A stretch of DNA of 64,000 bases from Burkholderiales bacterium (GCA_040902335.1 JBBDXL010000170.1:9283-73282); one strand, 5' to 3'; numbered from the stretch's first letter, positions 25,896 through 49,722 are shown. The notes: a model not told the origin generated them from the letters alone. Numbers and translations are program-made.

Positions 25896-26227
25896 CAGCC
25901 CGTGCTCCAGGCGCGCGGCCGGCGCATGCCGGCGACCTTGCAGGCCTGCTTCACGTAGCCGTAGGGAAACAGTCGGAACAGCTCGTTGCGGTCCTCGCGG
26001 CCCGCGCCGCGCCAGACGGCCAGATGCTTCATGACGTGGCGCGCGTCCGGCGCGATGTGGTGTGCTTCGTAGTACTGGCGCATGAACCGGATCACCGCCC
26101 AGTGCGCATCGGTGAGCGCGATGCGCTCCCTGCGCGCCAGGTCCTCGGCGACGCTCTCGTTCCAGTCGCCGGGATCGACGAGGTAGCCTTCGTCGTCGAG
26201 CGCGGGCCGCGTGCTCTCGACCCTCAT
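25895..26227 (-). CDS. TusE/DsrC-family protein, only penultimate Cys retained (tail ...QACKVAGMRRPRAWSTG)
   Basis: 110-aa product MRVESTRPALDDEGYLVDPGDWNESVAEDLARRERIALTDAHWAVIRFMRQYY...LFPYGYVKQACK. ATGA overlaps on both sides (dsrN, dsrR). Confidence 0.8.
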   Translation of the reverse strand: MRVESTRPALDDEGYLVDPGDWNESVAEDLARRERIALTDAHWAVIRFMRQYYEAHHIAPDARHVMKHLAVWRGAGREDRNELFRLFPYGYVKQACKVAGMRRPRAWSTG

Positions 26228-34127: not shown

Positions 34128-34460
34128 CTATACACAGCCGGTCGGCTTGGGCAGCCCCGCGTACTTGCAGGCCTGCTTGGCGGGACCGTACGGGAACAGC
34201 TCGTACAGGTACTTGCTGTTGCCCTTGTCCGCGCCGAGCTTCTTGCCGATGGCCTTGGTCAGCACGCGCACCGCCGGTGCGATCTGATACTCGTCGTAGT
34301 ACTCGCGCAGGAAGTTGAGCACTTCCCAGTGGTTCTCGCTCAGGTCGCAGTTGTCGACGCGCGCCATTTCCTTGGCCACGTCCTCGCTCCAGTCGGCGCG
34401 GTCGGCGAGATAGCCTTCCTCGTCGGTTTCGATGGTCTTGCCGCTCACTTCGATGGGCAT
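34128..34460 (-). CDS. dsrC: DsrC, sulfur carrier with both C-terminal cysteines
   Basis: 110-aa ORF ending ...LFPYGPAKQACKYAGLPKPTGCV, the canonical two-Cys arm. Confidence 0.95.
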   Translation of the reverse strand: MPIEVSGKTIETDEEGYLADRADWSEDVAKEMARVDNCDLSENHWEVLNFLREYYDEYQIAPAVRVLTKAIGKKLGADKGNSKYLYELFPYGPAKQACKYAGLPKPTGCV

Positions 34461-35561: not shown

Positions 35562-36656
35562 CTAGAAGCGGATGTGCGCCGAGGCGTTGAGGCTGTTCCT
35601 CGCCCCGCGCCAGTTGTCGATGTGGAACTTGGTGAACGGCAGCCCGGTCAGCTCGAAGAACCTCGGCCAGCCGATGCGCTCCACCCAGTCGCCTACGCGC
35701 TCCCAGTCGCGCGCGTCCTTCTTGTAGGTATACAGGATCTTCTTCACCACCGCGGCGACTTCCGGCCAGCGCGGCGGGTTGTTGGGCAGGCCCGCCGCCA
35801 CCAGCTTCTGGAACATCGGCTTGGAGCGGGCGTTGGAGTTCTTCCCGCCCACCCAGATGGCGAGCTTGGAGTGCTCCGGGTCGTTGATCTGCATCGGCGG
35901 GCACGGCGGGTAGCAGGCGCCGCAGCAGATGCACTTCTTCTCGTCCACCTCGAGCGAGGGCTTGCCGTTGACGATCGCCGGGCGGATCGCCGCCACCGGG
36001 CAGCGCGCCACCACGGAAGGCCGCTCGCACACGTTCGCCACCAGGTCGTGGTTGATCTTCGGCGGCTTGGTGTGCTGCACGTTGATCGCGATGTCGCCCT
36101 GGCCGCCGCAGTTGATCTGGCAGCACGAGGTGGTGATGTGCACGCGGTTCGGCATCTCCTCCTTGATGAACTCCTCGTAGAGCTCGTCCATCAGGGACTT
36201 CACCACGCCCGAGGCGTCGGTGCCGGGGATGTCGCAGTGCAGCCAGCCCTGCGTATGCGAGATCATGGTCACCGAGTTGCCGGTGCCGCCGACCGGGTAG
36301 CCCGCGTCGTTGAACGCCTGGATGAGGGGGCCGACCTTCTCCCACTTCGACACCATCACTTCCAGATTGGAGCGGATGGTGAAGCGCACGTGGCCTTCGC
36401 CGTACTGGTCGACGATGTCGCACAGCAGGTTGATCTCGTAGGGCCCGAGCTGGCGCTGAGTGCCGACGCGCACCGTCCAGATCTCGTCGCCCGAGTAGGC
36501 GACGTGGTGCAGCACCCCCGGCCGCGGCCGGTCGTGGTACTTCCAGTTGCCGAAGTTCTTCACCATCAGCGGATGCATGAACTGCATGCCGTCGGGACAC
36601 CCGCTCTCGATCGGCGTGCGCATCTGCTTCTTCTCTACCGCCTGTGCTTGTGCCAC
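35562..36656 (-). CDS. dsrB: dissimilatory sulfite reductase beta subunit (reverse/oxidative type by gene context)
   Basis: 364-aa ORF with siroheme/Fe-S motifs (TSCCQINCGG, CICCGACYPPCP). Confidence 0.95.
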   Translation of the reverse strand: MAQAQAVEKKQMRTPIESGCPDGMQFMHPLMVKNFGNWKYHDRPRPGVLHHVAYSGDEIWTVRVGTQRQLGPYEINLLCDIVDQYGEGHVRFTIRSNLEVMVSKWEKVGPLIQAFNDAGYPVGGTGNSVTMISHTQGWLHCDIPGTDASGVVKSLMDELYEEFIKEEMPNRVHITTSCCQINCGGQGDIAINVQHTKPPKINHDLVANVCERPSVVARCPVAAIRPAIVNGKPSLEVDEKKCICCGACYPPCPPMQINDPEHSKLAIWVGGKNSNARSKPMFQKLVAAGLPNNPPRWPEVAAVVKKILYTYKKDARDWERVGDWVERIGWPRFFELTGLPFTKFHIDNWRGARNSLNASAHIRF

Positions 36657-36677: not shown

Positions 36678-37982
36678 TCAGGCTACCGGCTGCTTGTGCC
36701 GCTCCACCCACTTCGCCGCTTCCTGGTCCCAGTCGTCCAGGCGCACGTAGGAGCTGGTGCGCGGATGGCTGATCATGTTCGGGTCGACCTCCACGCCGAT
36801 GCCCTCCAGGAAGTTCGCCAGGCCGATCCTCTCGATCATCTCGCCGCAGCGCTCGTGCTCCAGGCCGTTCTCCGCCCAGAAATCGATCACCGTGGCCGCC
36901 AGCTCGCGCAGCTTCTCGTAGTCCTCGTCGGTGTCCATCTTCATGAACGGCACGATCACCGTGCCCATGGTGTCGCCGATCTTCAGCGTCCGCTTGCCGC
37001 CGATGAGCAGGGTGATGCCGCGATCCTTGCCGGGTTTGAGCGCCTTGGTCATGACGTTGATGCAGTGCATGCAGCGCACGCAGCTCTTGTTGTCGACCTC
37101 GAGCGTGTCGTCATCGTTCAGCGACAGCGCCCTGGTCGGGCAGCGCGCGATGACGTTGTCGATGGTGTACTTGCGGCCGTGGCTCTCGATGTAGTCCTTC
37201 ACGCCCTTCTGGTCGACCTGCATGTCGTCGCGCCAGGTGCCGATCACGGCGAAGTCGGCGCGCTGGATCGAGTTCATGCAGTCGTTCGGGCAGCCCGAGA
37301 CCTTGAACTTGAACTTGTAGGGCAGCGCCGGGCGGTGCATGTCGTCGATGAAGTTGTTGACCAGCGTGCTGTGGATGCGGTGCTCGTTGGCGCAGGACTG
37401 CTCGCAGCGCGCCGCGCCGACGCAGGACATGGCGGTGCGCACGCACGGGCCCGCGCCGCCCAGGTCGAAGCCGTACTCGTTGATCTCGTCGAAGAAATGC
37501 TGCGTGTTCTCGCTGGTCGAGCCGATGAACATGATGTTGCCGGTCTGGCCGTGGAAAGCGATCAGGCCCGAGCCCCACTTGTTCCAGGAGTTGGAGAGCT
37601 GCCGCAGCAGCTTGGTGGTGTAGTGGTTCCCGGCGGGCGGCTGCACGCGCAGCGTGTGGAATTCCTTCGACTCCGGAAACATGCTCGCCACTTCGGAGAA
37701 GCGCGGGATGATGCCCCCGCCATAGCCGAACACCGAGACCGTGCCGCCCTTCCAGTAGCCGAGGCGCGTCTTGTACGAGTGCTCGAGCTGGCCGAGCAGG
37801 TCGACCATCATGTTGTTCTCGTGCGCCAGGCGCTTCAAGCCCGTGACGAAGCTCGGCCAGGGGCCGCTCTCGAGCTGGTCGAGCATCGGCGTCGGGTGGA
37901 AGGCCTTGGTGGACTTCTTCTCCTTGGGCAGGTAGGTGCTGTGCCGCTGCGGATCTTTCGGCGGCGTGCGGGCGTCGGACAT
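36678..37982 (-). CDS. dsrA: dissimilatory sulfite reductase alpha subunit (reverse/oxidative type by gene context)
   Basis: 434-aa ORF with ferredoxin-insert motifs (CVRCMHCINVM, SGCPNDC). First gene of the operon. Confidence 0.95.
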   Translation of the reverse strand: MSDARTPPKDPQRHSTYLPKEKKSTKAFHPTPMLDQLESGPWPSFVTGLKRLAHENNMMVDLLGQLEHSYKTRLGYWKGGTVSVFGYGGGIIPRFSEVASMFPESKEFHTLRVQPPAGNHYTTKLLRQLSNSWNKWGSGLIAFHGQTGNIMFIGSTSENTQHFFDEINEYGFDLGGAGPCVRTAMSCVGAARCEQSCANEHRIHSTLVNNFIDDMHRPALPYKFKFKVSGCPNDCMNSIQRADFAVIGTWRDDMQVDQKGVKDYIESHGRKYTIDNVIARCPTRALSLNDDDTLEVDNKSCVRCMHCINVMTKALKPGKDRGITLLIGGKRTLKIGDTMGTVIVPFMKMDTDEDYEKLRELAATVIDFWAENGLEHERCGEMIERIGLANFLEGIGVEVDPNMISHPRTSSYVRLDDWDQEAAKWVERHKQPVA

Positions 37983-38054
37983 CGCGGTCCCTCCAGATGT
38001 GCGAAATCGAGCCCCGCCAGTGTAATGACGCCCCCTCGCGCACCTGCCTGATCA

Positions 38055-38085
38055 TTGGGGATAGGCACCTCTCCCTTTGGGGATA
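38055..38085. promoter_or_regulatory. direct repeat TTGGGGATA x2 (22-bp spacing) in the dsrA / tauD-like divergent intergenic region
   Basis: TTGGGGATA at 38055..38063 and again at 38077..38085. Lies 73-103 nt upstream of the dsrA ATG and 32-62 nt upstream of the 38117 ATG. Confidence 0.3.
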
Positions 38086-38116
38086 TACGGGTTGCTTATG
38101 CCCAAGAGAGCCGCAA

Positions 38117-38998
38117 ATGCGGTACGTTGTGTTCGCCTTGAACGCCGTCCTGCAAGACCCATTCGACCGCCGGCGCGAGCGCAAGCTCGCGCGCTATCCG
38201 CGCCGCACCGAGGACCTGATCGTCGAGGTGCGCGATCCGCGCAATCTGAGCGACAGCGAGGCTGCCGAGATCCGGCGCCTGTGCGCCGTGGCGAACATGG
38301 CGGTGTACGCGAGCCCGCTCGCAGGCATAGCGGACAAGGACATCGCGCGGCGCCTCGGCGAGCGCCTCGGGCTCGAGCGCCTGCAGGCCAATCCGCTCGC
38401 CGACGAGGACGGCATCACCTCGCTCGAGGTGGCGGCGGAAAAGTCGGGACGAGGCTACATCCCGTACTCCAGCCGGCGGCTCCTCTGGCACACCGATGGC
38501 TACTACAACCCGCCCGCGAGCCGCATCCGCGCCTTCCTCCTGCACTGCGTGCGCCCCGCGGCCGAAGGCGGCGAGAACCGGCTGCTCGATCCGGAGATCG
38601 CCTACCTCCTGCTGCGCGACGCCGACCCGCGCTACGTCGCGGCGCTCTCGGCGCCAGACGCCATGACCATTCCCGCCAACGAGGAGAATCCCGCCGCGCA
38701 GCGCGCGGCGCAGACGGGTCCGGTCTTCTCCTGCGAGGGCGGCGCGCTGCACATGCGCTACACCGCGCGCACGCGCAGCATCGAGTGGCGGCCGGACGAG
38801 GTGACGCAGGCCGCGGTGCAGCGCCTGCGCGAGATCCTCGACTCCGACTCGCCCTATGTCTTCAAGCTGAGGCTCTCGGGAGGCCAGGGCCTGGTGTGCA
38901 ACAACGTGCTGCACGATCGCAGCGAGTTCACCGACGCACCCGGCGCGGGCCGCCTCGTGTACCGGGCGCGCTACGCCGACCGCATCGGCCCGGCATGA
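38117..38998 (+). CDS. TauD/TfdA-family Fe(II)/2-oxoglutarate dioxygenase-like protein
   Basis: 293-aa product from MRYVVFALN.... Has the HxD facial-triad motif LLWHTDGYY and the distal His in NNVLHDRSEF. The earlier track start (37997) lies within the promoter region. Confidence 0.75.
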   Translation: MRYVVFALNAVLQDPFDRRRERKLARYPRRTEDLIVEVRDPRNLSDSEAAEIRRLCAVANMAVYASPLAGIADKDIARRLGERLGLERLQANPLADEDGITSLEVAAEKSGRGYIPYSSRRLLWHTDGYYNPPASRIRAFLLHCVRPAAEGGENRLLDPEIAYLLLRDADPRYVAALSAPDAMTIPANEENPAAQRAAQTGPVFSCEGGALHMRYTARTRSIEWRPDEVTQAAVQRLREILDSDSPYVFKLRLSGGQGLVCNNVLHDRSEFTDAPGAGRLVYRARYADRIGPA

Positions 38999-39717
38999 AG
39001 ACCATCCCGCTCAAGTACATCCGGGAAGACCCGGGCGTCGGCAACGCCGACGACAGCAGCGACGCGGCCGAGGAGACCGGGAAGCTCAAGCGCCTGGTCG
39101 CCGGCGTGCGCGAGGAGCTCGACGCGCTCTCCCCCGGCGCGGCGCCGCTGCGCCGCGCCGACCTGCTGCTGCAGCTCGGCCGCGCGCTGGTGCGGCTCGA
39201 GCAGGGCGCCGAGGCCTGGGCCACCGCGCGCGAGGCGTTCGACCTATATCTCGCCGAGCAGGCCTGGGAAGGCGCGGCGCAGGCCTGCGACATCCTGTTC
39301 CTCGCCGGCGAGCCGCAATCGCTCGCCGCGCTCGGCCAGGGCATCTGGCTCGCGGTGACCTACCCGATCGATCCCGAGCTGAGCGTCGCGCTGCTGCAGC
39401 ACGTGGTCGACGAGACGCCGCCGGACGCCGACGGCGCGGCGGTTGCCGCGGTGACGGCGCACTACCTCGTAGACCTGCGCGCACAGGATCCGCAGCGCGA
39501 GCACCTGCTGCTCTACACCAACCAGCTGCTCGCTACGGTCGCGCGCCGGCATAGCGGCGTGGACGGGCAGGAGGCGTTCAACCGCTGGATCGAGGACATG
39601 GAGCTGAGCGACCCGGCGAAGTTCCTGCCGCGCCTCAGGAACGTGGTCGACGTCCTGGTGCAGGACGAGTGGTGGCTCGACCGCGACGCCCTGCAGGCGG
39701 CGCTGCCCGCGGACTGA
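38995..39717 (+). CDS. hypothetical helical protein
   Basis: 240-aa product MKTIPLKYIREDPG... with an ATGA overlap with the tauD-like gene. Coding-like composition; I recognised no family. Confidence 0.6.
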   Translation: MKTIPLKYIREDPGVGNADDSSDAAEETGKLKRLVAGVREELDALSPGAAPLRRADLLLQLGRALVRLEQGAEAWATAREAFDLYLAEQAWEGAAQACDILFLAGEPQSLAALGQGIWLAVTYPIDPELSVALLQHVVDETPPDADGAAVAAVTAHYLVDLRAQDPQREHLLLYTNQLLATVARRHSGVDGQEAFNRWIEDMELSDPAKFLPRLRNVVDVLVQDEWWLDRDALQAALPAD

Positions 39718-39722
39718 GTGGC

Positions 39723-40364
39723 ATGGACGAGGTCGTGGACGCGGTGTTCGCGATCGAGTGCCGCAGCCTGCCGGTCGACCACGCTTACGCGCTCTCCGCG
39801 GCGATCCAGGCGGCGCTGCCCTGGTTCGCCGGCGAGCCGCAAGCCGGGCTGCACACGATCCACGGGGCGTCCTCGGCGAGCGGCTGGATGCGGCCCGAGG
39901 GCGAGGACGCGCTGCTGCAGCTTTCGCATCGCACGAAGCTCGTGCTGCGCATTCCCGAGCGTCGCCTGGCGCATGCCGAGGCGCTCACCGGACTGACGCT
40001 GGACGTCGCCGGCTGGCCGATGCGCGTAGGCCGGGTATCGCCGCGCCCGCTCGTGCGCATCGCGTCGCTCTTCTCGCGCAGCGTGATCTTCGAGGGCGCG
40101 GCCGACGAGCCGGCGTTCGTCGCCGCCGCGATCGAGGGGCTGCGCGCGCTCGGCGTGGAAACCTCGACCATGCTCTGCGGGCGCGAGGTGACCCTCGCCA
40201 CGCCGGAAGGTACCTATCGGACGCGCAGCCTGATGGTGACTGTCGCCACGCCGGCGCAGTCGCTCGAGTTGCAGCGCCACGGGCTGGGCGAAGCGCGCAA
40301 GCTCGGCTGCGGCCTGTTTATTCCCCACAAGGACGTGGGCGACCTGCGCTCCGGATCGGATTGA
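39723..40364 (+). CDS. Cas6/Cmx6-like (type I-MYXAN Cas6 family) protein, orphan
   Basis: 213-aa product MDEVVDAVFAIECRSLPVDHAYAL...LELQRHGLGEARKLGCGLFIPHKD. The N-terminal VD..F.i.g..LP.DH and C-terminal G.G..R..GCG.F.PHK signatures match my memory of the Cmx6 family. No HMM search was run. Confidence 0.55.
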   Translation: MDEVVDAVFAIECRSLPVDHAYALSAAIQAALPWFAGEPQAGLHTIHGASSASGWMRPEGEDALLQLSHRTKLVLRIPERRLAHAEALTGLTLDVAGWPMRVGRVSPRPLVRIASLFSRSVIFEGAADEPAFVAAAIEGLRALGVETSTMLCGREVTLATPEGTYRTRSLMVTVATPAQSLELQRHGLGEARKLGCGLFIPHKDVGDLRSGSD

Positions 40365-40381
40365 TCGCAAAAGAGGACACC

Positions 40382-40723
40382 ATGACGTACGAAGTGAACG
40401 GCAGGACGCTCGAGGCGACCGAGAGCGGCTACCTGGCGAACCCGGACGACTGGGACAAGGATGTCGCGCAGGCGATCGCCGCCGCGGAAGGGCTTGCACT
40501 CACCCAGGACCACTGGGACGTGATCGAGTACCTGCGCGATGCCTGGTTCAACCACAACGCCGAGCAGCCCAACAACCGCGCCATCCTCAAGGCGATGCAG
40601 GACAAATGGGCGGGCCGCAAGGTGGACAACAAGACCCTGTTCGATCTCTACCCGGGCAACCCGTCCAAGCAGGCGGGCAAGATCGCCGGGCTGCCCGAGA
40701 GCCTGAGGAAGGGCGGGTACTGA
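40382..40723 (+). CDS. TusE/DsrC-family protein with no cysteines (copy A; tail ...PSKQAGKIAGLPESLRKGGY)
   Basis: 113-aa product MTYEVNGRTLEATESGYLANPDDWDKDVAQAIAAAEGLALTQDHWDVIEYLRD.... Clear DsrC fold pattern, but both functional Cys are replaced. Confidence 0.85.
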   Translation: MTYEVNGRTLEATESGYLANPDDWDKDVAQAIAAAEGLALTQDHWDVIEYLRDAWFNHNAEQPNNRAILKAMQDKWAGRKVDNKTLFDLYPGNPSKQAGKIAGLPESLRKGGY

Positions 40724-40748: not shown

Positions 40749-40838
40749 TCGTAGGCTGGCTACGAATTATCCGTCCGTTCTAATAGATCGTCAGCAGGTA
40801 ATATTAGTATGGTGTGTATAATCGTAGTGTGGCTACGA
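40749..40838. promoter_or_regulatory. pair of palindromes TCGTAG-N5-CTACGA upstream of / overlapping the abiEi start: candidate AbiEi operator
   Basis: TCGTAGGCTGGCTACGA at 40749..40765 and TCGTAGTGTGGCTACGA at 40822..40838, in an AT-rich stretch containing TATAAT (40817..40822). Confidence 0.35.
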
Positions 40839-41566
40839 CTACTCATAGCAAACTAAATAACCTCTATAACCGGTTGCCTGGCGGCTCTCCGGTGACTTCG
40901 GCGGAGCTCGCTCGGATGGGTGTTTCCGCGGACCTTGCGGTCCACTACGCACGCGCCGGGTGGCTGCGGCGCTTGGCAAAGGGTGTCTACACCAAGCCTG
41001 GCGACTCGCTCCAGTTGCATCCAAGCCTCGTCGTGCTCCAACGGCAAGTAGCCGGCCTTCACGTTGGCGGGAAGACGGCTCTCGAGTGGTACGGCGTCCG
41101 CCAGTATGTGGCGCAGCAGTCCGTACTGCATCTGTACGGCTGGGTGACCGCGAAACATCCCGAGTGGTTCGTCAAGCACTTCCCGAGCGAGTATCACCGC
41201 AAGCGGCTGTTCAAGGAAAAGCCCGAGAACATGCCTGGAGTGGGTCGCTTCGAGAATCGCGACAACGCGCCCATGGTTTCAACGCCGGAACGGGCGCTCC
41301 TCGAGCTCCTGGACGAGGTGGGCGTTCGGCAACCGCTGCAGGAGGCGAGGGAGATAGCCGAAGGCACGTACAACCTCCGCGCCGAAGTGCTGATGGATCT
41401 TCTCAAGCAGTGCACGAGCGTGAAGACGGTACGGCTGTGCCTCATGCTCGGGCGCGAGCTTTCGCTGCCGTGGGGGAGCAAGCTCGACGCAGACGCCCTG
41501 CCGAAGGGAAGCGCGCGTCCCTGGATATCGAAGTCCAAAGACGGCCTGCTGGTGCTCAAGCCTTGA
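40814..41566 (+). CDS. abiEi: type IV toxin-antitoxin system AbiEi family antitoxin
   Basis: 250-aa ORF. N-terminal wHTH pattern (VTSAELARMGVSADLAVHYARAGWLRRLAKGVY) and a C-terminal AbiEi_3-like region. The start is uncertain (GTG 40814, GTG 40829 or later). Confidence 0.8.
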   Translation: MYNRSVATTTHSKLNNLYNRLPGGSPVTSAELARMGVSADLAVHYARAGWLRRLAKGVYTKPGDSLQLHPSLVVLQRQVAGLHVGGKTALEWYGVRQYVAQQSVLHLYGWVTAKHPEWFVKHFPSEYHRKRLFKEKPENMPGVGRFENRDNAPMVSTPERALLELLDEVGVRQPLQEAREIAEGTYNLRAEVLMDLLKQCTSVKTVRLCLMLGRELSLPWGSKLDADALPKGSARPWISKSKDGLLVLKP

Positions 41567-42480
41567 ATCAGGTTTATCTCGATACCGCGCGGCTCCTGAC
41601 CCAGGTCGCACCGCTGGTGTTCGCGAACAACGTCTTCGCGCTCAAGGGCGGAACGGCGATCAATCTCTTCGTCCGCGACATGCCCCGGCTGTCCGTGGAC
41701 CTCGACCTGGTTTTCGCCGATCACACCCTGGCCCGGGAAGAAGCGCTCGGCAAGATCAATGAGGCGATCAGGAGCGCCGGCGAGCGCCTGAAGAAGCGCG
41801 GGTTCCAGACTCACGTGGCGACGGTCGCCGACGCCGGCGAAACCAAGTTGTTCGTCCGGCGCGAGAAGCTGGAAGTCAAGGTCGAAGTAAATTTCGTGCT
41901 GCGAGGCACGGTGCATCCGGTTCGTCCGGCGTCGCTCACCGCGAAGGCGAAGGAAGTCTTGCAGGCGGATCTGGAATTACCGCTCCTGTCGCTTGAGGAT
42001 CTGTATGGCGGGAAGCTCGTGGCGGCAATGGACCGCCAGCATGCGCGAGACCTGTTCGACGTCATGGAGCTCTTCCGTCATGGGGGAATCACGCCGGGCA
42101 TCCGGCGCAGCTTCGTCGCCTACCTGGCCGCGCACAACCGGCCGATTCACGAGGTGCTTTACCCGAACCTTCGGGATGTTTCGGGCGGATACGAGGGCAC
42201 TTTCAAGGGCATGACGGCGGAGCCCGTGGCGTTGAAGGCGCTCCTGGCGGCGCGCGAGCGCATGGTGAAAGAGCTGCAGGCGGGGCTCGACATCGCCGAG
42301 CGCGAGTTCCTGCTATCGCTCGCCAGGAACGACCCCAAGTGGGACTTGCTGGGCATAGCGCATCTCGAGCAGATGCCCGGCGTCCGGTGGAAGCTGGAGA
42401 ACCTCGGCCGCCTGGCGAAGGCGAACCCGAAGAAGCTCAAGGCGCAGGCTGAGGAACTCGAGCGGCTGCTTGCGAAGTGA
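41563..42480 (+). CDS. abiEii: nucleotidyltransferase AbiEii/AbiGii family toxin
   Basis: 305-aa product with a TTG start overlapping the abiEi stop (TTGA). Has the FALKGGTAINLF...RLSVDLDLVF NTase motif. Confidence 0.85.
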   Translation: MNQVYLDTARLLTQVAPLVFANNVFALKGGTAINLFVRDMPRLSVDLDLVFADHTLAREEALGKINEAIRSAGERLKKRGFQTHVATVADAGETKLFVRREKLEVKVEVNFVLRGTVHPVRPASLTAKAKEVLQADLELPLLSLEDLYGGKLVAAMDRQHARDLFDVMELFRHGGITPGIRRSFVAYLAAHNRPIHEVLYPNLRDVSGGYEGTFKGMTAEPVALKALLAARERMVKELQAGLDIAEREFLLSLARNDPKWDLLGIAHLEQMPGVRWKLENLGRLAKANPKKLKAQAEELERLLAK

Positions 42481-42524: not shown

Positions 42525-42920
42525 TTAGCCTTGCCCTTCCGGCTCGCCCTGCCAGAGCATGTCGTAGCCCAGTTCCTTGGTCTCGGTGCACATCTTCGCC
42601 AGCGCCTCGAACTTGTTGGTGAACGTGGCGTCGGCGTGCGAGCGCTCGTGCTCCTCGAAGGAGCGCCAGTAGGTGACGATGACGTAATGCTCGTCCGCGG
42701 TGCGCGTGGCGTTGAGCGAGCCCTGGTCGGACACGAAGCCGGAGAACTTGAACACCTGGCCGGCGATGAAGCCGCCCTTGTCTCCACCGTAGGTTTCCTT
42801 GACCACGTTGCACATCTCGCCCACGGCCAGCTCGACATCCTCGAACTTGACGCCGGGCTTGAGTTTCACGGTGTTGAACAGCATCTTGGCGCCGAAGGGC
42901 AGGGTGATCGGTTCGAACAT
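42525..42920 (-). CDS. hypothetical protein, ABM/Dabb-like (ferredoxin-like alpha+beta) domain
   Basis: 131-aa ORF. The VIVTYWRSFEEHERSHADATFTNKF pattern resembles antibiotic-biosynthesis-monooxygenase-like domains. Confidence 0.5.
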   Translation of the reverse strand: MFEPITLPFGAKMLFNTVKLKPGVKFEDVELAVGEMCNVVKETYGGDKGGFIAGQVFKFSGFVSDQGSLNATRTADEHYVIVTYWRSFEEHERSHADATFTNKFEALAKMCTETKELGYDMLWQGEPEGQG

Positions 42921-42988: not shown

Positions 42989-43330
42989 ATGACGTACGAA
43001 GTGAACGGCAGGACGCTCGAGGCCACCGAGAGCGGCTACCTGGTGAACCAGGACGACTGGGACAAGGACGTCGCGCAGGCGATCGCCGCGGCCGAAGGCC
43101 TCACGCTCACCCAGGACCACTGGGACGTGATCGAGTACTTGCGCGATGCCTACCTCAATCACAACGGCGAGCAGCCGAACAATCGTGCCATCCTCAAGGC
43201 CATGCAAGACCAGTGGCCGGAGCGCAAGGTGGACAACAAGACCCTGTTCGATCTCTACCCGGGCAACCCTTCCAAGCAGGCGGGCAAGATCGCGGGGCTG
43301 CCCGAGAGCCTGCGCAAGGGCGGGTACTGA
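42989..43330 (+). CDS. TusE/DsrC-family protein with no cysteines (copy B, 9 aa differences from copy A)
   Basis: 113-aa ORF, collinear with 40382..40723. Nucleotide similarity starts at the ATG and stops at the TGA. Confidence 0.85.
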   Translation: MTYEVNGRTLEATESGYLVNQDDWDKDVAQAIAAAEGLTLTQDHWDVIEYLRDAYLNHNGEQPNNRAILKAMQDQWPERKVDNKTLFDLYPGNPSKQAGKIAGLPESLRKGGY

Positions 43331-43407: not shown

Positions 43408-43647
43408 ATGCGCCTTAACATACTTGAAGCGAAGAACCGGTTGTCCGAGCTGGTGCGCGCCGCATGTGCCGGAAAGGAAGTTGTGATCGCGAAGAACGGG
43501 CAGCCGATGGTGCGGCTCGTGCCCATCGCGGCAGCCGCCGGACTCAAGGGTTTCGGTTCGTTGAAATCCGTTCGCGGCGATGCCGACAAGGCGTTCACGC
43601 CTGCCACCGAGCGCGAGGTCGCGCGGCTCTTTCGCGGCCGCGCGTGA
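43408..43647 (+). CDS. Phd/YefM-family type II antitoxin
   Basis: 79-aa ORF MRLNILEAKNRLSELVRAACAGKEVVIAKNGQPMVRLVP, the classic Phd/YefM N-terminus. Confidence 0.8.
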   Translation: MRLNILEAKNRLSELVRAACAGKEVVIAKNGQPMVRLVPIAAAAGLKGFGSLKSVRGDADKAFTPATEREVARLFRGRA

Positions 43648-44018
43648 CGCTGCTGCTTGATACGCAGGTCGCGATCTGGTGGCTTGTCGGCAGCCGCCGG
43701 CTCGGCGGCCCGGCGCGAAAGCTGCTCGCCGGATCAGCCTGCGTGTTATCGGCGGCCAGCGTCTGGGAAGTCGCCATCAAGCACCGCCTCGGCAAGCTGT
43801 CCGTCGCACCGGCGCTGTTTCGCGATCGCATGATCGCGGCCGGCGCCGAGTTGCTGATGGTGTCCGATAGGCATGCCATCGAAACCGCCGCCTTGCCGCG
43901 CCACCACGACGACCCCTTCGACCGCATGCTGATTGCGCAGGCGCGCGTGGAAAAATTGCGGGCCGTTTCCGCGGACAGGGCGTGGCGGGACTACGAAATC
44001 GATCTCGCGGCCGTCTGA
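43644..44018 (+). CDS. vapC: PIN-domain toxin (VapC-like)
   Basis: 124-aa product with a GTG start overlapping the antitoxin stop (GTGA). LLLDTQVAIWW...SAASVWEVAIK...HHDDPFDRMLIAQA, with the PIN acidic residues. Confidence 0.8.
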   Translation: MTLLLDTQVAIWWLVGSRRLGGPARKLLAGSACVLSAASVWEVAIKHRLGKLSVAPALFRDRMIAAGAELLMVSDRHAIETAALPRHHDDPFDRMLIAQARVEKLRAVSADRAWRDYEIDLAAV

Positions 44019-44031
44019 GCGCGCTAATCCG

Positions 44032-44346
44032 TCACCCGTAGTGCTTGCGCTGCGCGCGCCTGCGGCCCACCTGCTGCACCACGCCGCCGCGGATGGTGTA
44101 GGGCGGGGTGAGCTCGAAGCCGCCGTACTTCGGGTTGAGGGGCTTCAGGAAGCGGCGCTCGCCGTCAAAAACGAGCTGGCGGAAGAAGACGTCCCCCGCG
44201 AACTCCACCACCATGTAAGAGCCGTCGCGCGGCACGTAGCCGGGGTCGACGATGACGACGCAGCCATCCGCGAATTCGGGCTCCATGCTGTCGCCGAGCA
44301 CGCGCAAGGCGTACGGTTCGAGCGCGCTGCAGCTTTCCTGGGCCAT
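44032..44346 (-). CDS. S24 (LexA/UmuD-type) serine peptidase domain protein without DNA-binding domain
   Basis: 104-aa product MAQESCSALEPYALRVLGDSMEPEF... (Ser nucleophile) and ...RRFLKPLNP (Lys). ATGA overlap with the upstream small gene. Confidence 0.7.
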   Translation of the reverse strand: MAQESCSALEPYALRVLGDSMEPEFADGCVVIVDPGYVPRDGSYMVVEFAGDVFFRQLVFDGERRFLKPLNPKYGGFELTPPYTIRGGVVQQVGRRRAQRKHYG

Positions 44347-44621
44347 CAGGGCTTCTTCTTGTAGAAATCGATCACCTTGTCCGCGCGCCCCGGCTCGTCG
44401 GCATAGCGCGGCTGCCCTCCGACCGGCCGGCCTGCGGCTTGCGCGAGTTCCCGCTCGCGCGCGCTGATCAACGCCAGGCACTGCCGCAAATCCTCGATCG
44501 TCGCGTCCGACAGCGGATGGCGCATGCCGTGGGGGGTGGCGGTGTCGCGGATCACCCCGGCGAGCGTCAGCTTCACCGCCTGCAGGATGCGCTCCTCCTT
44601 GGAAAGTTGCGGATCGCTCAT
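44346..44621 (-). CDS. hypothetical small protein (91 aa)
   Basis: Translationally coupled to the S24 gene and 10 nt downstream of the PiuC-like stop. Helical; I recognised no family. Confidence 0.5.
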   Translation of the reverse strand: MSDPQLSKEERILQAVKLTLAGVIRDTATPHGMRHPLSDATIEDLRQCLALISARERELAQAAGRPVGGQPRYADEPGRADKVIDFYKKKP

Positions 44622-44631
44622 CGCGTGCGCC

Positions 44632-45306
44632 TTAAATGTCCGACCACATGCGGATCAAATTCAGGTAAGCGGCATTCACCTGCGCGGTCTCCTCCGCCTC
44701 GGGCGCAGCCGCGAGCAGCTTCTCCCGCGCGAGGTTCAGCCCGTACAACAGCTCGCGCCGCGCCGGATCGCGCACCAGGCTCTGCACCCAGGTCACCGCC
44801 ACCAGCCGCTCGCCGCGCGTCACCGGACGCACCTGGTGGATCGTGCTCGCCGGATAGAGCACCGCGTCGCCCGCCGCGCCCTTCACCTGCTGCTCGCCCG
44901 AAGCCGTGCGCACGACGAGCTCGCCGCCATCGTACTCTTCGGGCGAGCTCAGAAACACCGTCACCGCAACGTCCGACCGGTACATCACCCCGCCGGTCCC
45001 CATGATCGGATCGTCCAGGTGTTCGCCGTACACCATCCCCGGCCGGTAGCGCGCATACAGCGGGCTCGCCGCGTGCAGCGGCAGCGCGCCGTTGCGGTAC
45101 ATCGGATGGCGCGACAAGGCGCCCATCACCAGCCGGTCGAGCCGCTCGACGTCGCCGGCGCCGCGATCGCGCTCCTGGTTCTCCTTCACGCGCCGCGCGG
45201 CGGCCCCGGCCGAGAGCTTGCCGTCCACAAACGGCGCATCGGCGAGCCAACTGCGCGCCAGCGCCAGCTCGTCGGGCTTGAGGACACCATTAACGACGAG
45301 CAGCAT
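44632..45306 (-). CDS. Fe(II)/2-oxoglutarate-dependent oxygenase, PKHD-type hydroxylase (PiuC/YbiX-like)
   Basis: 224-aa ORF with HxD in VYGEHLDDP, the distal His and Arg in STIHQVRPVTRGERL, and the YbiX-type C-terminal helical tail. Confidence 0.85.
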   Translation of the reverse strand: MLLVVNGVLKPDELALARSWLADAPFVDGKLSAGAAARRVKENQERDRGAGDVERLDRLVMGALSRHPMYRNGALPLHAASPLYARYRPGMVYGEHLDDPIMGTGGVMYRSDVAVTVFLSSPEEYDGGELVVRTASGEQQVKGAAGDAVLYPASTIHQVRPVTRGERLVAVTWVQSLVRDPARRELLYGLNLAREKLLAAAPEAEETAQVNAAYLNLIRMWSDI

Positions 45307-45312
45307 GCGCGC

Positions 45313-45657
45313 TCAGGTATCGGCTTGCGGCATCGGCAGGCCGGCCAGCCTGCAGATGCTGCGCACCGGATCGGTGTGGAACAGGCTGTAGATGTGCTTC
45401 TCGTAGGCCTTGCGGTCGCGAAAGCGCGCGCCCTCGCGCTTGCCGAGATCCAAGACCATCCTGCGCATGGTGGGCGCGGTCAGCGTTTCCTCGTAGTAGT
45501 CGCGGAAGTACCAGATCAGCTCCCAGTGGTCCACGAACAGCTCGAAGCCGTCGTGCGCGGCCAGCGCGCTCGCGAAATCCTCGCTCCAGTCGCCGAGCTC
45601 GAGCAGGAACCCCTGCTCGTCGGTCTCGATCGTCCTGCCGTTGACTTCGAACTGCAT
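45313..45657 (-). CDS. TusE/DsrC-family protein, penultimate Cys only (tail ...SICRLAGLPMPQADT)
   Basis: 114-aa ORF MQFEVNGRTIETDEQGFLLELGDWSEDFASALAAHDGFELFVDHWELIWYFRDYY... Confidence 0.8.
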   Translation of the reverse strand: MQFEVNGRTIETDEQGFLLELGDWSEDFASALAAHDGFELFVDHWELIWYFRDYYEETLTAPTMRRMVLDLGKREGARFRDRKAYEKHIYSLFHTDPVRSICRLAGLPMPQADT

Positions 45658-45660
45658 GTC

Positions 45661-46254
45661 TCACGCGAAGCAGATCCAGGTGGTGGCAATGTACTTGACC
45701 CCGGCCTGCAGCGTGACGCCGCGATGCACGTGCGTCCAGAACGGCGGGAACAGCACGAGCTTGCCCTGCGCCGGCCGGATCAGCACCTCCTGCAGCGGGA
45801 ACTCGGTCTCGCCGCCCGGCCCCGCGACGTCGTTCAGGTACCAGATGGCGACCATCTGGCGCGCGCTGAACTCGCCCGGCCCCGCGTCTACGTGCCAGTG
45901 GTAGTACTCCCCCGGCAAAGTGCGCTGCAGGTTGTAGCCGATGTCCTTGAACTTGTTGGCGGCGAAGAAGGGGAACTCCAGCGCGAAGGCGTTGAAGCTC
46001 GACACGAGCTGCTGCGCGAGGATCCGGTCGAGGTCGCGCCAGTCCTCGCGCCCGCTGATGCGCAGGTCGGTGGAGCGCTTGACCTGCGGCGCGATCTCGC
46101 CGGCCTGGCCGATCCGGCCCGGCGCCTGCTGGTCGGCAGAGGCCTCGAAGCGCCGGATGGCCTCCGCGCAGACGTCGGCCGGCAGCGCGCGCTCCTTCTC
46201 GTAGATGAAGCTCAAGGGCTTGACCTCGCGGATGCGCGCGTCCGAAAGCGACAT
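45661..46254 (-). CDS. 2OG-Fe(II) oxygenase, prolyl 4-hydroxylase-like
   Basis: 197-aa ORF with HxD in YYHWHVDAG, the distal His in FWTHVHRG and the Lys/Arg 2OG anchor region GVKYIATTW. Confidence 0.75.
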   Translation of the reverse strand: MSLSDARIREVKPLSFIYEKERALPADVCAEAIRRFEASADQQAPGRIGQAGEIAPQVKRSTDLRISGREDWRDLDRILAQQLVSSFNAFALEFPFFAANKFKDIGYNLQRTLPGEYYHWHVDAGPGEFSARQMVAIWYLNDVAGPGGETEFPLQEVLIRPAQGKLVLFPPFWTHVHRGVTLQAGVKYIATTWICFA

Positions 46255-46258
46255 CGGC

Positions 46259-46582
46259 TCAGCCGTACAGCAGCTCGGTGTTCTGCATCTCGCCCGCGGC
46301 GTCGATGTCCACGCCGACCGCGCCCGGCATGCGCAGGGCGATGTAGCCGGCCATCAGCATGGCGGTGGCCTCGTTGCCCGTCGTGAGGCTGGAGAGCAGC
46401 CGCTCGGCGACGATCTGGCAGCGCTGCAGCCGGTCGGGGCGCTCTACGAACTCGCGGCTCATCTGCCAGCCGCGGTCCATGTCGCGGTCGAGCCTGGCGT
46501 GGAACTCGGCGGATTCGCGCAGCAGGTCGTCGGGCAGCTCGATGGCGTAGACCTGCTCGCCGATGACGACCTTGAATTGCAT
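46259..46582 (-). CDS. hypothetical protein (107 aa), first gene of the oxygenase/DsrC-like operon
   Basis: Product MQFKVVIGEQVYAIELPDDLL.... Its stop lies 4 nt before the P4H-like start. The longer track start (46627) would overlap the divergent gene. Confidence 0.5.
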   Translation of the reverse strand: MQFKVVIGEQVYAIELPDDLLRESAEFHARLDRDMDRGWQMSREFVERPDRLQRCQIVAERLLSSLTTGNEATAMLMAGYIALRMPGAVGVDIDAAGEMQNTELLYG

Positions 46583-46619
46583 AATATCGATCGTTGCACA
46601 GTCTACAGGAGCACCTGTC

Positions 46620-46817
46620 ATGGGCACCCCCTACTACGACGGCATCGACCGGATGCAGAAGCAGAACGTCGACCCCGAGTACATCAACGGCTGGGCGTCG
46701 GGCTTCCTGCACAACCCCAAGCGCGAGCAGCAACGCGCGAACGAGGCCTACGAGGCCGGCTACGCGGCCGGCCTGAAGAAAGACAAGGGCGGCTTCGAGG
46801 CCTGGATCAGGAAGTAG
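46620..46817 (+). CDS. hypothetical small protein (65 aa)
   Basis: MGTPYYDGIDRMQKQNVDPEYINGW... preceded by AGGAG 10 nt upstream. No family recognised. Confidence 0.4.
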   Translation: MGTPYYDGIDRMQKQNVDPEYINGWASGFLHNPKREQQRANEAYEAGYAAGLKKDKGGFEAWIRK

Positions 46818-49356: not shown

Positions 49357-49359
49357 ATC

Positions 49360-49722
49360 ATGAGCTTGATGGACGAGATCATCGGCAAGGGCGACGCCGG
49401 CAAGGACGCCCTGTTCCCGCACGCGCCCGCGGGCTGGACGCCGGCGCTCGCCGCCGAGTCCGCGCGGCGCGAAGACCTGGAGCTCGGCGAAGAGCACTGG
49501 ATGGCGGTACGCGCCCTGCAGGAATACTTCGCGCGGCACGAACCGACCGCGGTCAACCTGCGCGAGCTGCACGATGCGCTCGACGAGAAGTTCCATCGCC
49601 AGGGCGGGATCCGGCGCCTGTACCTGCTTTTCCCCGGCGGGCCGGTGGCGCAGGGCTGCCGCGTGGCCGGGCTCAAGGCGCCGGCGGGCGCCACCGACAA
49701 GGGCTTCGGCAGCGTCGCCTAG
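49360..49722 (+). CDS. divergent TusE/DsrC-family protein, penultimate Cys only, extended tail (...LFPGGPVAQGCRVAGLKAPAGATDKGFGSVA)
   Basis: 120-aa ORF starting 3 nt after the tandem-TusA stop. Has the LELGEEHWMAVRALQEYF core typical of the DsrC helix-turn-helix-like region. Confidence 0.7.
   Translation: MSLMDEIIGKGDAGKDALFPHAPAGWTPALAAESARREDLELGEEHWMAVRALQEYFARHEPTAVNLRELHDALDEKFHRQGGIRRLYLLFPGGPVAQGCRVAGLKAPAGATDKGFGSVA

Follow-up and report, generated by a model that had tools for sequence, protein, structure and literature searches.

A Cas6-family protein without CRISPR in a conserved gene module divergent from dsrAB of sulfur-oxidising Beta- and Gammaproteobacteria

Results

A 64,000-nucleotide stretch of DNA from a Burkholderiales bacterium (GCA_040902335.1 JBBDXL010000170.1:9283-73282; this whole stretch is the window below) carries a tightly packed unit of genes divergent from dsrA. 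The unit encodes a TauD-like oxygenase, a helical protein of 240 amino acids (aa), a Cas6-like protein and a cysteine-free paralogue of DsrC. The feature is real, widespread and largely unremarked: numerous sulfur oxidisers among the Beta- and Gammaproteobacteria retain the module, divergent from dsrAB, and it is independent of CRISPR (clustered regularly interspaced short palindromic repeats). An earlier note, made from the window's sequence alone, had read the unit as a sulfur-oxidation module and not as CRISPR biology. This reading holds, as the unit is syntenic and tied to dsrAB and its Cas6 is an orphan. We infer that the module serves the oxidative Dsr pathway, and we favor, with a rough probability of 0.4, the view that an exapted Cas6 takes part in a small regulatory complex of that pathway.

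Profiles and predicted structure of the Cas6-like protein

The open reading frames (ORFs) reproduced all of the gene coordinates, the junctions and the 134-bp shared control region given in the earlier note (Table 1), and every peptide quoted in it (VDAVFAIECRSLPVDHAYAL, GLGEARKLGCGLFIPHKD and KQAGKIAGLPESLRKGGY) was found in the products. The start codon of the TauD-like gene at 38117 is backed by the N-termini of its orthologues. This gene and the helical protein gene overlap by an ATGA (38995-38998), followed by gaps of 5 nt before the Cas6-like gene (39718-39722) and 17 nt before the DsrC-like gene (40365-40381). These overlapping or nearly abutting frames suggest coupled synthesis of the module proteins. 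On the other side of the control region, the window's DsrA and DsrB are 93-99% identical to the proteins of related Burkholderiales-clade loci (L001-L019), and the L001 counterparts of dsrA and dsrB have a NIR_SIR Pfam match. Hidden Markov model (HMM) searches matched three of the four products to the Cas6/Cmx6, DsrC and TauD families named earlier, and left the 240-aa product without a family.

The third product matches PF09559 (E 3e-56; 190.9 bits against a cut-off of 26.7) and TIGR02807, cas6_cmx6 (119.8 bits against the NCBI cut-off of 98.85). The Cas6 models of PADLOC match it as well (E 5e-55). A profile built from 46 diverse homologues retrieved the Cas6 of the Cascade of a type I-B CRISPR-associated transposon (CAST; 8fcj_B, E 1.5e-27). 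The AlphaFold2 model of the protein is confident (predicted local distance difference test, pLDDT, 92.5; predicted template modelling score 0.88), and Foldseek aligned it to the type I-B Cas6 chain 8fcu_B with a template modelling (TM) score of 0.78 (E 5.7e-17, 24% identity). Almost all of the matches ranked 3 to 41 are other Cas6/Cse3/CasE chains or Cascade entries. The predicted structure of 39723-40364 has the double ferredoxin-like, or RAMP (repeat-associated mysterious protein), fold with a C-terminal glycine-rich loop. Profiles and model together indicate that the third product is a true Cas6/RAMP-fold protein, which upholds the Cas6/Cmx6 assignment made in the earlier note.

The conservation pattern points to the same loop. 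The segment G-x-G-x2-R-x-L-G-C-G-L-F-x-P-H-K is the most conserved of the Cas6-like protein, including the glycines G187, G189, G195 and G197. Arg76 is invariant in the Cas6-like clade and Arg119 nearly so, and both align to arginines of 8fcj_B; Arg108 of the window protein aligns to a lysine in this CRISPR-linked Cas6. Among the 85 homologues nearest to the protein, conservation of His20 and of His44 reaches at least 98%, yet both are variable in the wider family. The clade thus shares with the type I-B/I-MYXAN Cas6 proteins (chain B of 8fcj and 8fcu) the family, the RAMP fold, the glycine-rich loop and several basic positions. It differs from the CRISPR-linked 8fcj_B in a clade-specific 9-residue insertion (SGNGWxRP), a PHK motif, an N-terminal M-x-W-Q-E extension found in most members and a near-neutral isoelectric point (pI).

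The Cas6-like gene is an orphan

The earlier note had found neither repeats nor a second cas gene in the 64 kb, and array scans, Rfam and PADLOC all agree. Neither Tandem Repeats Finder nor our own k-mer scan for spaced repeats detected a CRISPR array in the window. Rfam includes families of CRISPR direct repeats; it returned no match in the window even at E <= 1, and no solitary CRISPR repeat was seen. When the 151 window ORFs of at least 150 aa were searched with PADLOC, a scan that leaves Cas2-size ORFs (<150 aa) outside, the Cas6 gene itself was the sole cas match.

We extended the array scan to 85 related loci (numbered L001 to L085) and obtained one doubtful repeat cluster only, at a contig end of L027, a metagenome-assembled genome (MAG) of the Thiotrichaceae. 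There, five spaced GATTGCGCGGATTTAA repeats (positions 1-221) lie 3 kb from the Cas6-like gene. We rejected this cluster as a CRISPR array: the genes around it encode a symporter, a CxxCxxCC protein and a DNA methylase, and none of them is a cas gene. No cas genes occur among the annotated neighbours in L001, L004 and L005 (from their Pfam lists) or in L027.

Because the NCBI and JGI pipelines label these proteins 'type I-MYXAN CRISPR-associated protein Cas6/Cmx6', one may think of a decaying type I-B/I-MYXAN CRISPR-Cas remnant, or of a mis-annotation, without any function. We find this hardly credible and consider the remnant explanation refuted in practice. The frame is uninterrupted, and sequence conservation extends over 80 species and about 1800 related metagenome proteins, which form 919 clusters at 50% identity. 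The insertion and the PHK motif particular to the clade are conserved, the site beside dsrAB is fixed, and the array scan of the 85 loci gave nothing closer to an array than the cluster described above, with no cas genes in the annotated ones. Compared with the type I-B/I-MYXAN proteins, the Cas6-like gene of the window has no CRISPR array, no solitary repeat and no Cas5, Cas7, Cas8, Cas3, Cas1 or Cas2 nearby, and has instead a fixed place next to dsrAB. The earlier note had named three findings that would speak against it: a non-RAMP fold, a CRISPR array and cas genes just outside the window, and a lack of synteny elsewhere. None of these was observed.

The module recurs in sulfur oxidisers

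To survey the neighbourhoods we searched a single genome for each species; of the at least 581 relatives of the Cas6-like protein that this gave, we examined the best 80. Almost all of these 80 come from sulfur oxidisers, and they include Burkholderiales MAGs, Sulfuricaulis, Acidiferrobacterales, Ectothiorhodospiraceae, Chromatiaceae, Thiodiazotropha, Thiothrix and Beggiatoaceae. The dsr-linked loci of the survey belong to Beta- and Gammaproteobacterial sulfur oxidisers.

We then counted adjacent genes by tblastn with the window proteins at 61 loci whose flanks were long enough, all from different species. The Cas6-like gene adjoins a divergent dsrA in 54 of the 61 loci and, also in 54, a DsrC paralogue whose tail ends in RKGGY. 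The TauD-like gene adjoins it in 50, the gene of a small acidic protein (described below) in 47 and the helical protein gene in 40. The earlier note had asked how often DsrC-like and TauD-like neighbours recur, and at 54/61 and 50/61 they do so regularly. The same gene order in dozens of species is more than chance.

The four-gene operon that had been proposed stands insofar as its order recurs in these species; its membership is not fixed. Gammaproteobacteria add a fifth gene, and the TauD-like gene and the helical protein gene are each dispensable in some lineages. For instance, L055 has kept the Cas6-like and DsrC-like genes alone, and most Beggiatoaceae loci (L025, L027, L038, L039, L044 and L070) have only the small protein gene and the Cas6-like gene together, at a site remote from dsr.

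The DsrC paralogue has lost both functional cysteines

The fourth product matches PF04358 (E 4.2e-32) and TIGR03342 (98.7 bits against a cut-off of 53.5), and the structure closest to it is Allochromatium vinosum DsrC (1yx3, E 9.4e-20). A DsrC that acts as a sulfur carrier has a penultimate cysteine (CysA) and a second one ten residues upstream (CysB). The tail of the product reads KQAGKIAGLPESLRKGGY, compared with KQACRFAGLPKPTGCV in true DsrC and with KQACKYAGLPKPTGCV at the end of the window's own true DsrC, so both cysteines are replaced and the carrier arrangement is lacking. HMMs, the 1yx3 match and the tail comparison thus bear out the DsrC fold with two missing functional cysteines that the earlier note had described. 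The loss is general: 62 of 64 orthologues are cysteine-free throughout, and none of the 64 has a tail cysteine. In place of the cysteines, KGGY is invariant in all 64 and the preceding arginine is present in 63, with or without the TauD-like gene, and the C-terminal arm of these proteins is two residues longer than that of DsrC.

In PMC8477390 and PMC9371685, cysteine-free relatives of DsrC carry the name RspA, 'regulatory sulfur-related proteins' (citing Venceslau et al. 2014), and the word 'regulatory' is presented there as a proposal. Our product is of this kind, a DsrC-family protein near sulfur-metabolism genes with both cysteines gone. It has in common with DsrC and RspA the DsrC fold and the sulfur-oxidation neighbourhood, and with RspA the loss of the redox cysteines. 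The RKGGY type stands apart as a sharply conserved subgroup with a longer tail and, in 54/61 loci, with a Cas6-like partner gene.

The window contains six genes of the DsrC/TusE family: one true DsrC (..PKPTGCV), three that retain CysB only and two that are cysteine-free. The second cysteine-free copy, overlooked in the earlier note, is 92% identical in nucleotide sequence to the first, over the coding sequence only. L006 likewise has two cysteine-free copies. Alvin_1508 of A. vinosum was considered as an orthologue of the DsrC-like gene and set outside the module because its neighbours are SufS and a succinyl-CoA synthetase.

The RKGGY type also occurs in viral sequences. Three IMG/VR contigs carry a cysteine-free DsrC of this type (L086 5001-5309, L087 5001-5336 and L088 4667-5339). 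In L087 and L088, phage protein families match its neighbours, and on L088, which is 219 kb long, two DsrC-like genes stand in tandem. Up to 5 kb from these three genes we found none of the Cas6-like, helical and TauD-like genes, and the viral collection yielded no Cas6-like relative. Compared with phage-borne DsrC-like auxiliary metabolic genes, then, the RKGGY cysteine-free type is common to both, and the phage copies lack the module partners. This suggests that the sulfur oxidation of the host is a target of a phage-borne RKGGY DsrC even where the rest of the module is missing.

The DsrC-like product also scores as a member of the TusE family, and TusE works in complex with a tRNA-modifying enzyme. 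Together with the RNA-binding fold of Cas6, this raises the idea of an RNA-modification module, in which a TusE-like protein, a RAMP protein and an oxygenase would jointly act on a nucleoside of tRNA or rRNA, in a manner analogous to the TusBCDE-MnmA thiouridine relay. Such a role is very improbable. The protein has no cysteine with which to relay sulfur, the module is linked to dsrAB and not to translation genes, and there is no tRNA gene, rRNA gene or modification enzyme within it.

The TauD-like protein and further 2-oxoglutarate oxygenases

The first product is a TauD-family Fe(II)/2-oxoglutarate (2OG) oxygenase (PF02668, E 8.6e-20; 72.2 bits against a cut-off of 27). Its iron ligands WHTDGYY (HxD) and NNVLH and a C-terminal arginine (YRAR) are conserved in 62 orthologues. 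According to PMC7596348, which cites Lenk et al. 2012, a tauD-like gene divergent from dsrA was named dsrQ by those authors, and this is what lies at 38117-38998. The same source places dsrQ mainly in aerobic chemotrophic sulfur oxidisers. Our gene agrees with published dsrQ in its position and orientation relative to dsrA and in its Pfam family. The papers cited here treat dsrQ alone; in our survey it opens a unit of several genes and is dispensable in some lineages. In Methylovirgula thiovorans, MHY1_00075 (DsrC-like) and MHY1_00078 (DsrQ) are reported beside DsrAB, and the two intervening genes are left uncommented (PMC9371685).

In PMC7596348, PMC9371685 and bioRxiv 10.1101/197269, sulfonate cleavage appears as a function of DsrQ by speculation only. 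If so, DsrQ would be a sulfonate dioxygenase that frees sulfite from taurine-like compounds, with its neighbours as unrelated passengers. Its Pfam family and the published proposals (PMC7596348, PMC9371685) speak for this idea, which we nevertheless judge improbable. The solved structure closest to the product is TmpA (6npb, E 3.9e-7). The best NCBIfam matches are TmpA, trimethyllysine dioxygenase (TMLD) and gamma-butyrobetaine dioxygenase (BBOX), all far below their cut-offs (24-46 bits against 268-415), and the NCBIfam search gave no TauD equivalog match. In addition, dsrQ overlaps the next gene, and the order dsrQ, helical, Cas6-like, DsrC-like recurs across classes, which is unexpected for passengers. 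Sulfite is also a product, not a substrate, of oxidative DsrAB.

Two further 2OG-Fe(II) oxygenases, of the PF13640 type, are found downstream. In the window they belong to a convergent operon (44032-46627, minus strand) that encodes a 122-aa protein, a PF13640 oxygenase, a DsrC paralogue with CysB only, a second oxygenase of PF13640/PKHD type, a 91-aa protein and an S24-peptidase-like protein. Of the 43 loci with dsrQ, 38 have one or both PF13640 oxygenases in the 10 kb downstream of the Cas6-like gene, compared with 1 of the 9 loci that lack dsrQ (Fisher p 1.4e-5). This co-occurrence implies that the three oxygen-dependent enzymes form a set that is added to a core also found without them. 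The PF13640 oxygenases match a PADLOC model labelled 'CRISPR-associated 2OG'.

These enzymes suggest an alternative in which no RNA is involved. The module would serve protein modification or maturation: the 2OG oxygenases would hydroxylate the C-terminal arms of the DsrC paralogues, or else DsrC or DsrAB, and the TPR-like protein (see below) and the Cas6-fold protein would be mere scaffolds that hold the substrate tail. We regard this as possible but rather unlikely. A DsrC paralogue lies directly between the two PF13640 oxygenases in the window, L006, L007 and L014, and the tail of the module's own DsrC paralogue is as good as invariant (KGGY in every ortholog, with the preceding arginine in 63/64), all of which would suit a modified tail. 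Protein hydroxylation is common among PF13640 enzymes, TPR-type proteins typically hold peptide tails in extended form, and substrates tethered to a carrier protein are used by some TauD-family enzymes. However, the RKGGY tail and the core persist without any of the three oxygenases in L059, L064, L076 and L079, so hydroxylation cannot be the core function. The conservation of the glycine-rich loop and of the arginines would also be needless in a scaffold.

Two acidic partner proteins

The 240-aa protein has no Pfam or NCBIfam family match, and its more than 3000 homologues are all annotated as 'hypothetical'. Its AlphaFold2 model (pLDDT 86.6) has 11 helices, and its pI is 4.5. The only hints of kinship are weak TPR-type matches (Pfam TPR_14, E 0.94; best Foldseek E 0.028, with TM of at most 0.52 among the matches listed). 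We also considered known helical Cas proteins. Cse2/Cas11 was rejected because PF09485 is only faintly matched in 2 of 37 orthologues (E 0.012) and PADLOC gave no match, and a small or large Cascade subunit was rejected because no Cas11 or Cas8 structure is among the Foldseek matches listed.

The fifth gene, which the earlier note had missed, encodes an acidic protein of 60-75 aa and is present in 59 of the 85 loci (among L021-L085). Examples are L022 8845-9024, L041 9733-9912 and L064 8962-9141. Wherever a locus is of the Gammaproteobacterial type, this gene follows the TauD-like gene and precedes the helical or the Cas6-like gene. The product has no Pfam family and shows the motif MLYLSE[IV]L.Q....F..L....A....FF[KR][IM]D[IV][KR]P.[YF].DTP..WE.RLE.AF. 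Neither tblastn nor an HMM run over six-frame ORFs found it in the window or its clade.

Ordered elements in the shared control region

An alignment of more than 50 dsrA/dsrQ intergenic regions revealed three ordered elements common to both classes: a box, a half-site and an imperfect palindrome (Table 1). Read on the dsrA strand, the box is TTACACT or CTAGACT and offers a -10-like hexamer (TACACT or TAGACT) for a putative dsrA promoter. From the start of the box to the start of the GGGATA arm the distance is 72-74 nt in 14 loci and 61 nt in the window. A palindrome with at least 5 of 6 complementary positions is found in 22 of 59 intergenic regions, compared with 2 of 1180 shuffles, and L065 has a compensatory variant (TATCTC/GAGATA). 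In the window's clade, the palindrome has degenerated to a direct repeat of TTGGGGATA with two copies. These stand 22-34 nt apart inside the intergenic region in 17 Burkholderiales-clade loci, with at most two more matches per locus elsewhere; a further locus, L012, has two copies that are both degenerate.

The palindrome could be drawn as an RNA hairpin (6 bp plus a tetraloop). We rejected this and read it as a DNA operator because it degenerates to direct copies and keeps a fixed distance to the -10-like box. To judge from sequence, these elements look like phased operator-like DNA sites upstream of a putative dsrA promoter.

Discussion

In its full form the module would comprise, in order, dsrQ, the small acidic protein gene where present, and the genes of the TPR-like protein, the Cas6-like protein and the cysteine-free DsrC. 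In the regulatory complex that we favor, the Cas6-like protein would be an exapted Cas6 that has retained the RAMP fold and the glycine-rich loop. In a small complex with the TPR-like and small acidic proteins, it would be the subunit that binds nucleic acid (or the acidic partners). The cysteine-free DsrC would have kept its flexible C-terminal arm, with the RKGGY end in place of the sulfur-carrying cysteine, and could dock as an adaptor or sensor on the partners of DsrC (DsrAB, DsrEFH) while carrying no sulfur. DsrQ and the two further 2OG oxygenases may provide an O2-dependent input in oxygen-respiring lineages. The output would be control of the expression or activity of the reverse-acting Dsr system by sulfur and oxygen status, most likely at the post-transcriptional level, by RNA binding or cleavage by the Cas6-like protein. 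In favour of this view we count the Cas6 family and fold with its conserved loop and arginines, the linkage to dsrAB and the close packing of the frames, the KGGY tail of the DsrC paralogue irrespective of dsrQ, the conserved iron ligands of DsrQ, the co-occurrence of three 2OG oxygenases, the phased operator-like sites of the control region and the A. vinosum transcripts described below. A more specific version of the regulatory complex is doubtful: that the Cas6-like protein, captured from a CRISPR system of type I-B-like origin, is an RNA-binding endoribonuclease, specific for sequence or structure, that processes or shields a sulfur-oxidation transcript, while the RKGGY DsrC and the 2OG oxygenases report the state of DsrAB/DsrEFH and oxygen.

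Several observations weigh against a regulatory complex built on RNA binding. Proteins of the Cas6-like clade are close to neutral, with a median pI of 6.2-6.4 and a net charge of about -3, compared with a pI of 9.2 for 8fcj_B, which fits a loss of general RNA affinity. Both the helical and the small partner are very acidic (pI 4.5) and could fill the former RNA groove, giving a pure protein complex; acidic partners and lost basic character also count for protein modification, as does the fact that three 2OG oxygenases travel with DsrC-family genes. No conserved hairpin was found in the spacers between the Cas6-like and DsrC-like genes and no RNA target was found, nor did the Rfam search (E <= 1) match any RNA family in the window. 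The 5' leaders in the window's clade are about 20-30 nt, as judged from intergenic lengths and promoter-like boxes. TauD-family enzymes, moreover, have mostly small-molecule substrates.

Published expression data from A. vinosum bear on the question of regulation. Alvin_1248, annotated as 'Cas6-related', lies two genes from dsrA, and two hypothetical genes lie directly beside dsrA (PMC11267869 Table S2). The orthology of Alvin_1248-1250 to the module is taken from annotation and from synteny in other Chromatiaceae (L069, L074) only, which also tempers the case. On pyrite, the fold changes of Alvin_1248/1249/1250 are 1.1/0.97/0.90, with dsrA at 0.038, a 26-fold fall (PMC11267869 Table S2). In the elemental-sulfur set re-tabulated there, the three genes are at 12.5/6.3/17.7, dsrA is at 0.24 and the dsr genes fall; these figures come from a secondary table with a loosely stated reference condition and are a further point of caution. 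The two comparisons suggest a lack of co-regulation between the divergent units, which may be inversely regulated.

The names dsrQ and rspA were known already; new is their link to three unnamed genes, including a Cas6 without CRISPR. The earlier note knew of no described function for this combination, which has to be amended in that two of its members, dsrQ and RspA, already bore names. In the literature we found no discussion of a Cas6 homologue with dsr, or of the helical protein. Like CASTs and other exapted Cas machinery, the module reuses a Cas protein outside adaptive immunity. CASTs keep the array, its crRNA and the remaining Cascade subunits; in the module Cas6 alone survives, in core energy metabolism and with no mobile element. 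In CASTs, the Cas6 end of Cascade docks a helical partner, TniQ (the titles of the structure entries show Cascade-TniQ complexes). If the Cas6-like protein does act as a specific endoribonuclease on a sulfur-oxidation transcript, it would be, to our knowledge, the first Cas6 exapted into the control of core energy metabolism and not into defence or transposition.

Oxidative DsrAB is the central enzyme for burning stored sulfur in many free-living and symbiotic bacteria, and the module bears on the control of dsr genes and on the roles of their many DsrC paralogues. It offers sulfur microbiology a testable candidate regulator, whose core appears, by annotation, beside dsrA in the tractable A. 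vinosum. For CRISPR biology, it adds a large and cleanly separated clade of Cas proteins outside immunity, and 'type I-MYXAN CRISPR-associated' labels inflate CRISPR counts in sulfur oxidisers.

Gene layout and neighbouring genes

Table 1. Positions of the module, its control elements and related genes in the window
Feature	Position	Strand	Remarks
dsrB	35562-36656	-	ORF; with dsrA, opens the oxidative dsr operon, which runs divergently from the module
dsrA	36678-37982	-	ORF; with dsrB, opens the oxidative dsr operon, which runs divergently from the module
Control region common to dsrA and the TauD-like gene	37983-38116		134 bp; block-wise conserved across the Burkholderiales clade
AGTGTAA box	38019-38025		AGTCTAG in most Gammaproteobacteria; consensus AGT(C/G)TA(G/A)
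First TTGGGGATAG copy, operator-like half-site	38054-38064		TTGGGG-type site, ~35 nt beyond the box
Imperfect palindrome TCTCCC-TTTG-GGGATA	38070-38085		Consensus TATCCC-N4-GGGATA; contains the second TTTGGGGATA copy
TauD-family Fe(II)/2OG oxygenase (dsrQ)	38117-38998	+	PF02668
240-aa acidic all-helical TPR-like protein	38995-39717	+	No family assignment
Cas6/Cmx6-family gene (Cas6-like)	39723-40364	+	PF09559, TIGR02807
Cysteine-free DsrC paralogue, RspA type, copy 1	40382-40723	+	PF04358; C-terminus ...AGLPESLRKGGY
131-aa gene	42525-42920	-	98% identical to L001 7094-7489
Cysteine-free DsrC paralogue, copy 2	42989-43330	+	PF04358, E 3e-33
Pair of PF13640-type 2OG-Fe(II) oxygenases	44632-45306 and 45661-46254	-	Flank the CysB-only DsrC paralogue
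DsrC paralogue retaining CysB alone	45313-45657	-	Between both PF13640 oxygenases
All six DsrC/TusE-family genes	25916-26173 (-), ~34128-34460 (-), 40382-40723, 42989-43330, 45313-45657 (-), 49357-49722		

The Cas6-like and DsrC-like genes of L001 have the 131-aa gene between them. In L007-L010 a space of about 450-460 nt at the corresponding position probably holds the same gene. The product has no Pfam family and only a faint monooxygenase-like match (E 0.009).

Two toxin-antitoxin pairs lie near the cysteine-free DsrC genes. An AbiEi antitoxin/AbiEii nucleotidyltransferase toxin pair (type IV; 40814-42480) separates the two copies, and within 3 kb, after copy 2, there is a second pair made up of a Phd/YefM antitoxin (43408-43647) and a PIN-domain toxin (43644-44018). 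PADLOC also reported single-ORF matches to HEC-09 (E 9e-37), mad3 (E 3e-27) and mad8 in 1-30000 and to mad2 (E 1e-16) in 30000-64000. Further downstream, at 47.8-51 kb, genes for TusA, DsrE2, a CsoR-like repressor and a DUF6866 protein are syntenic with L001.

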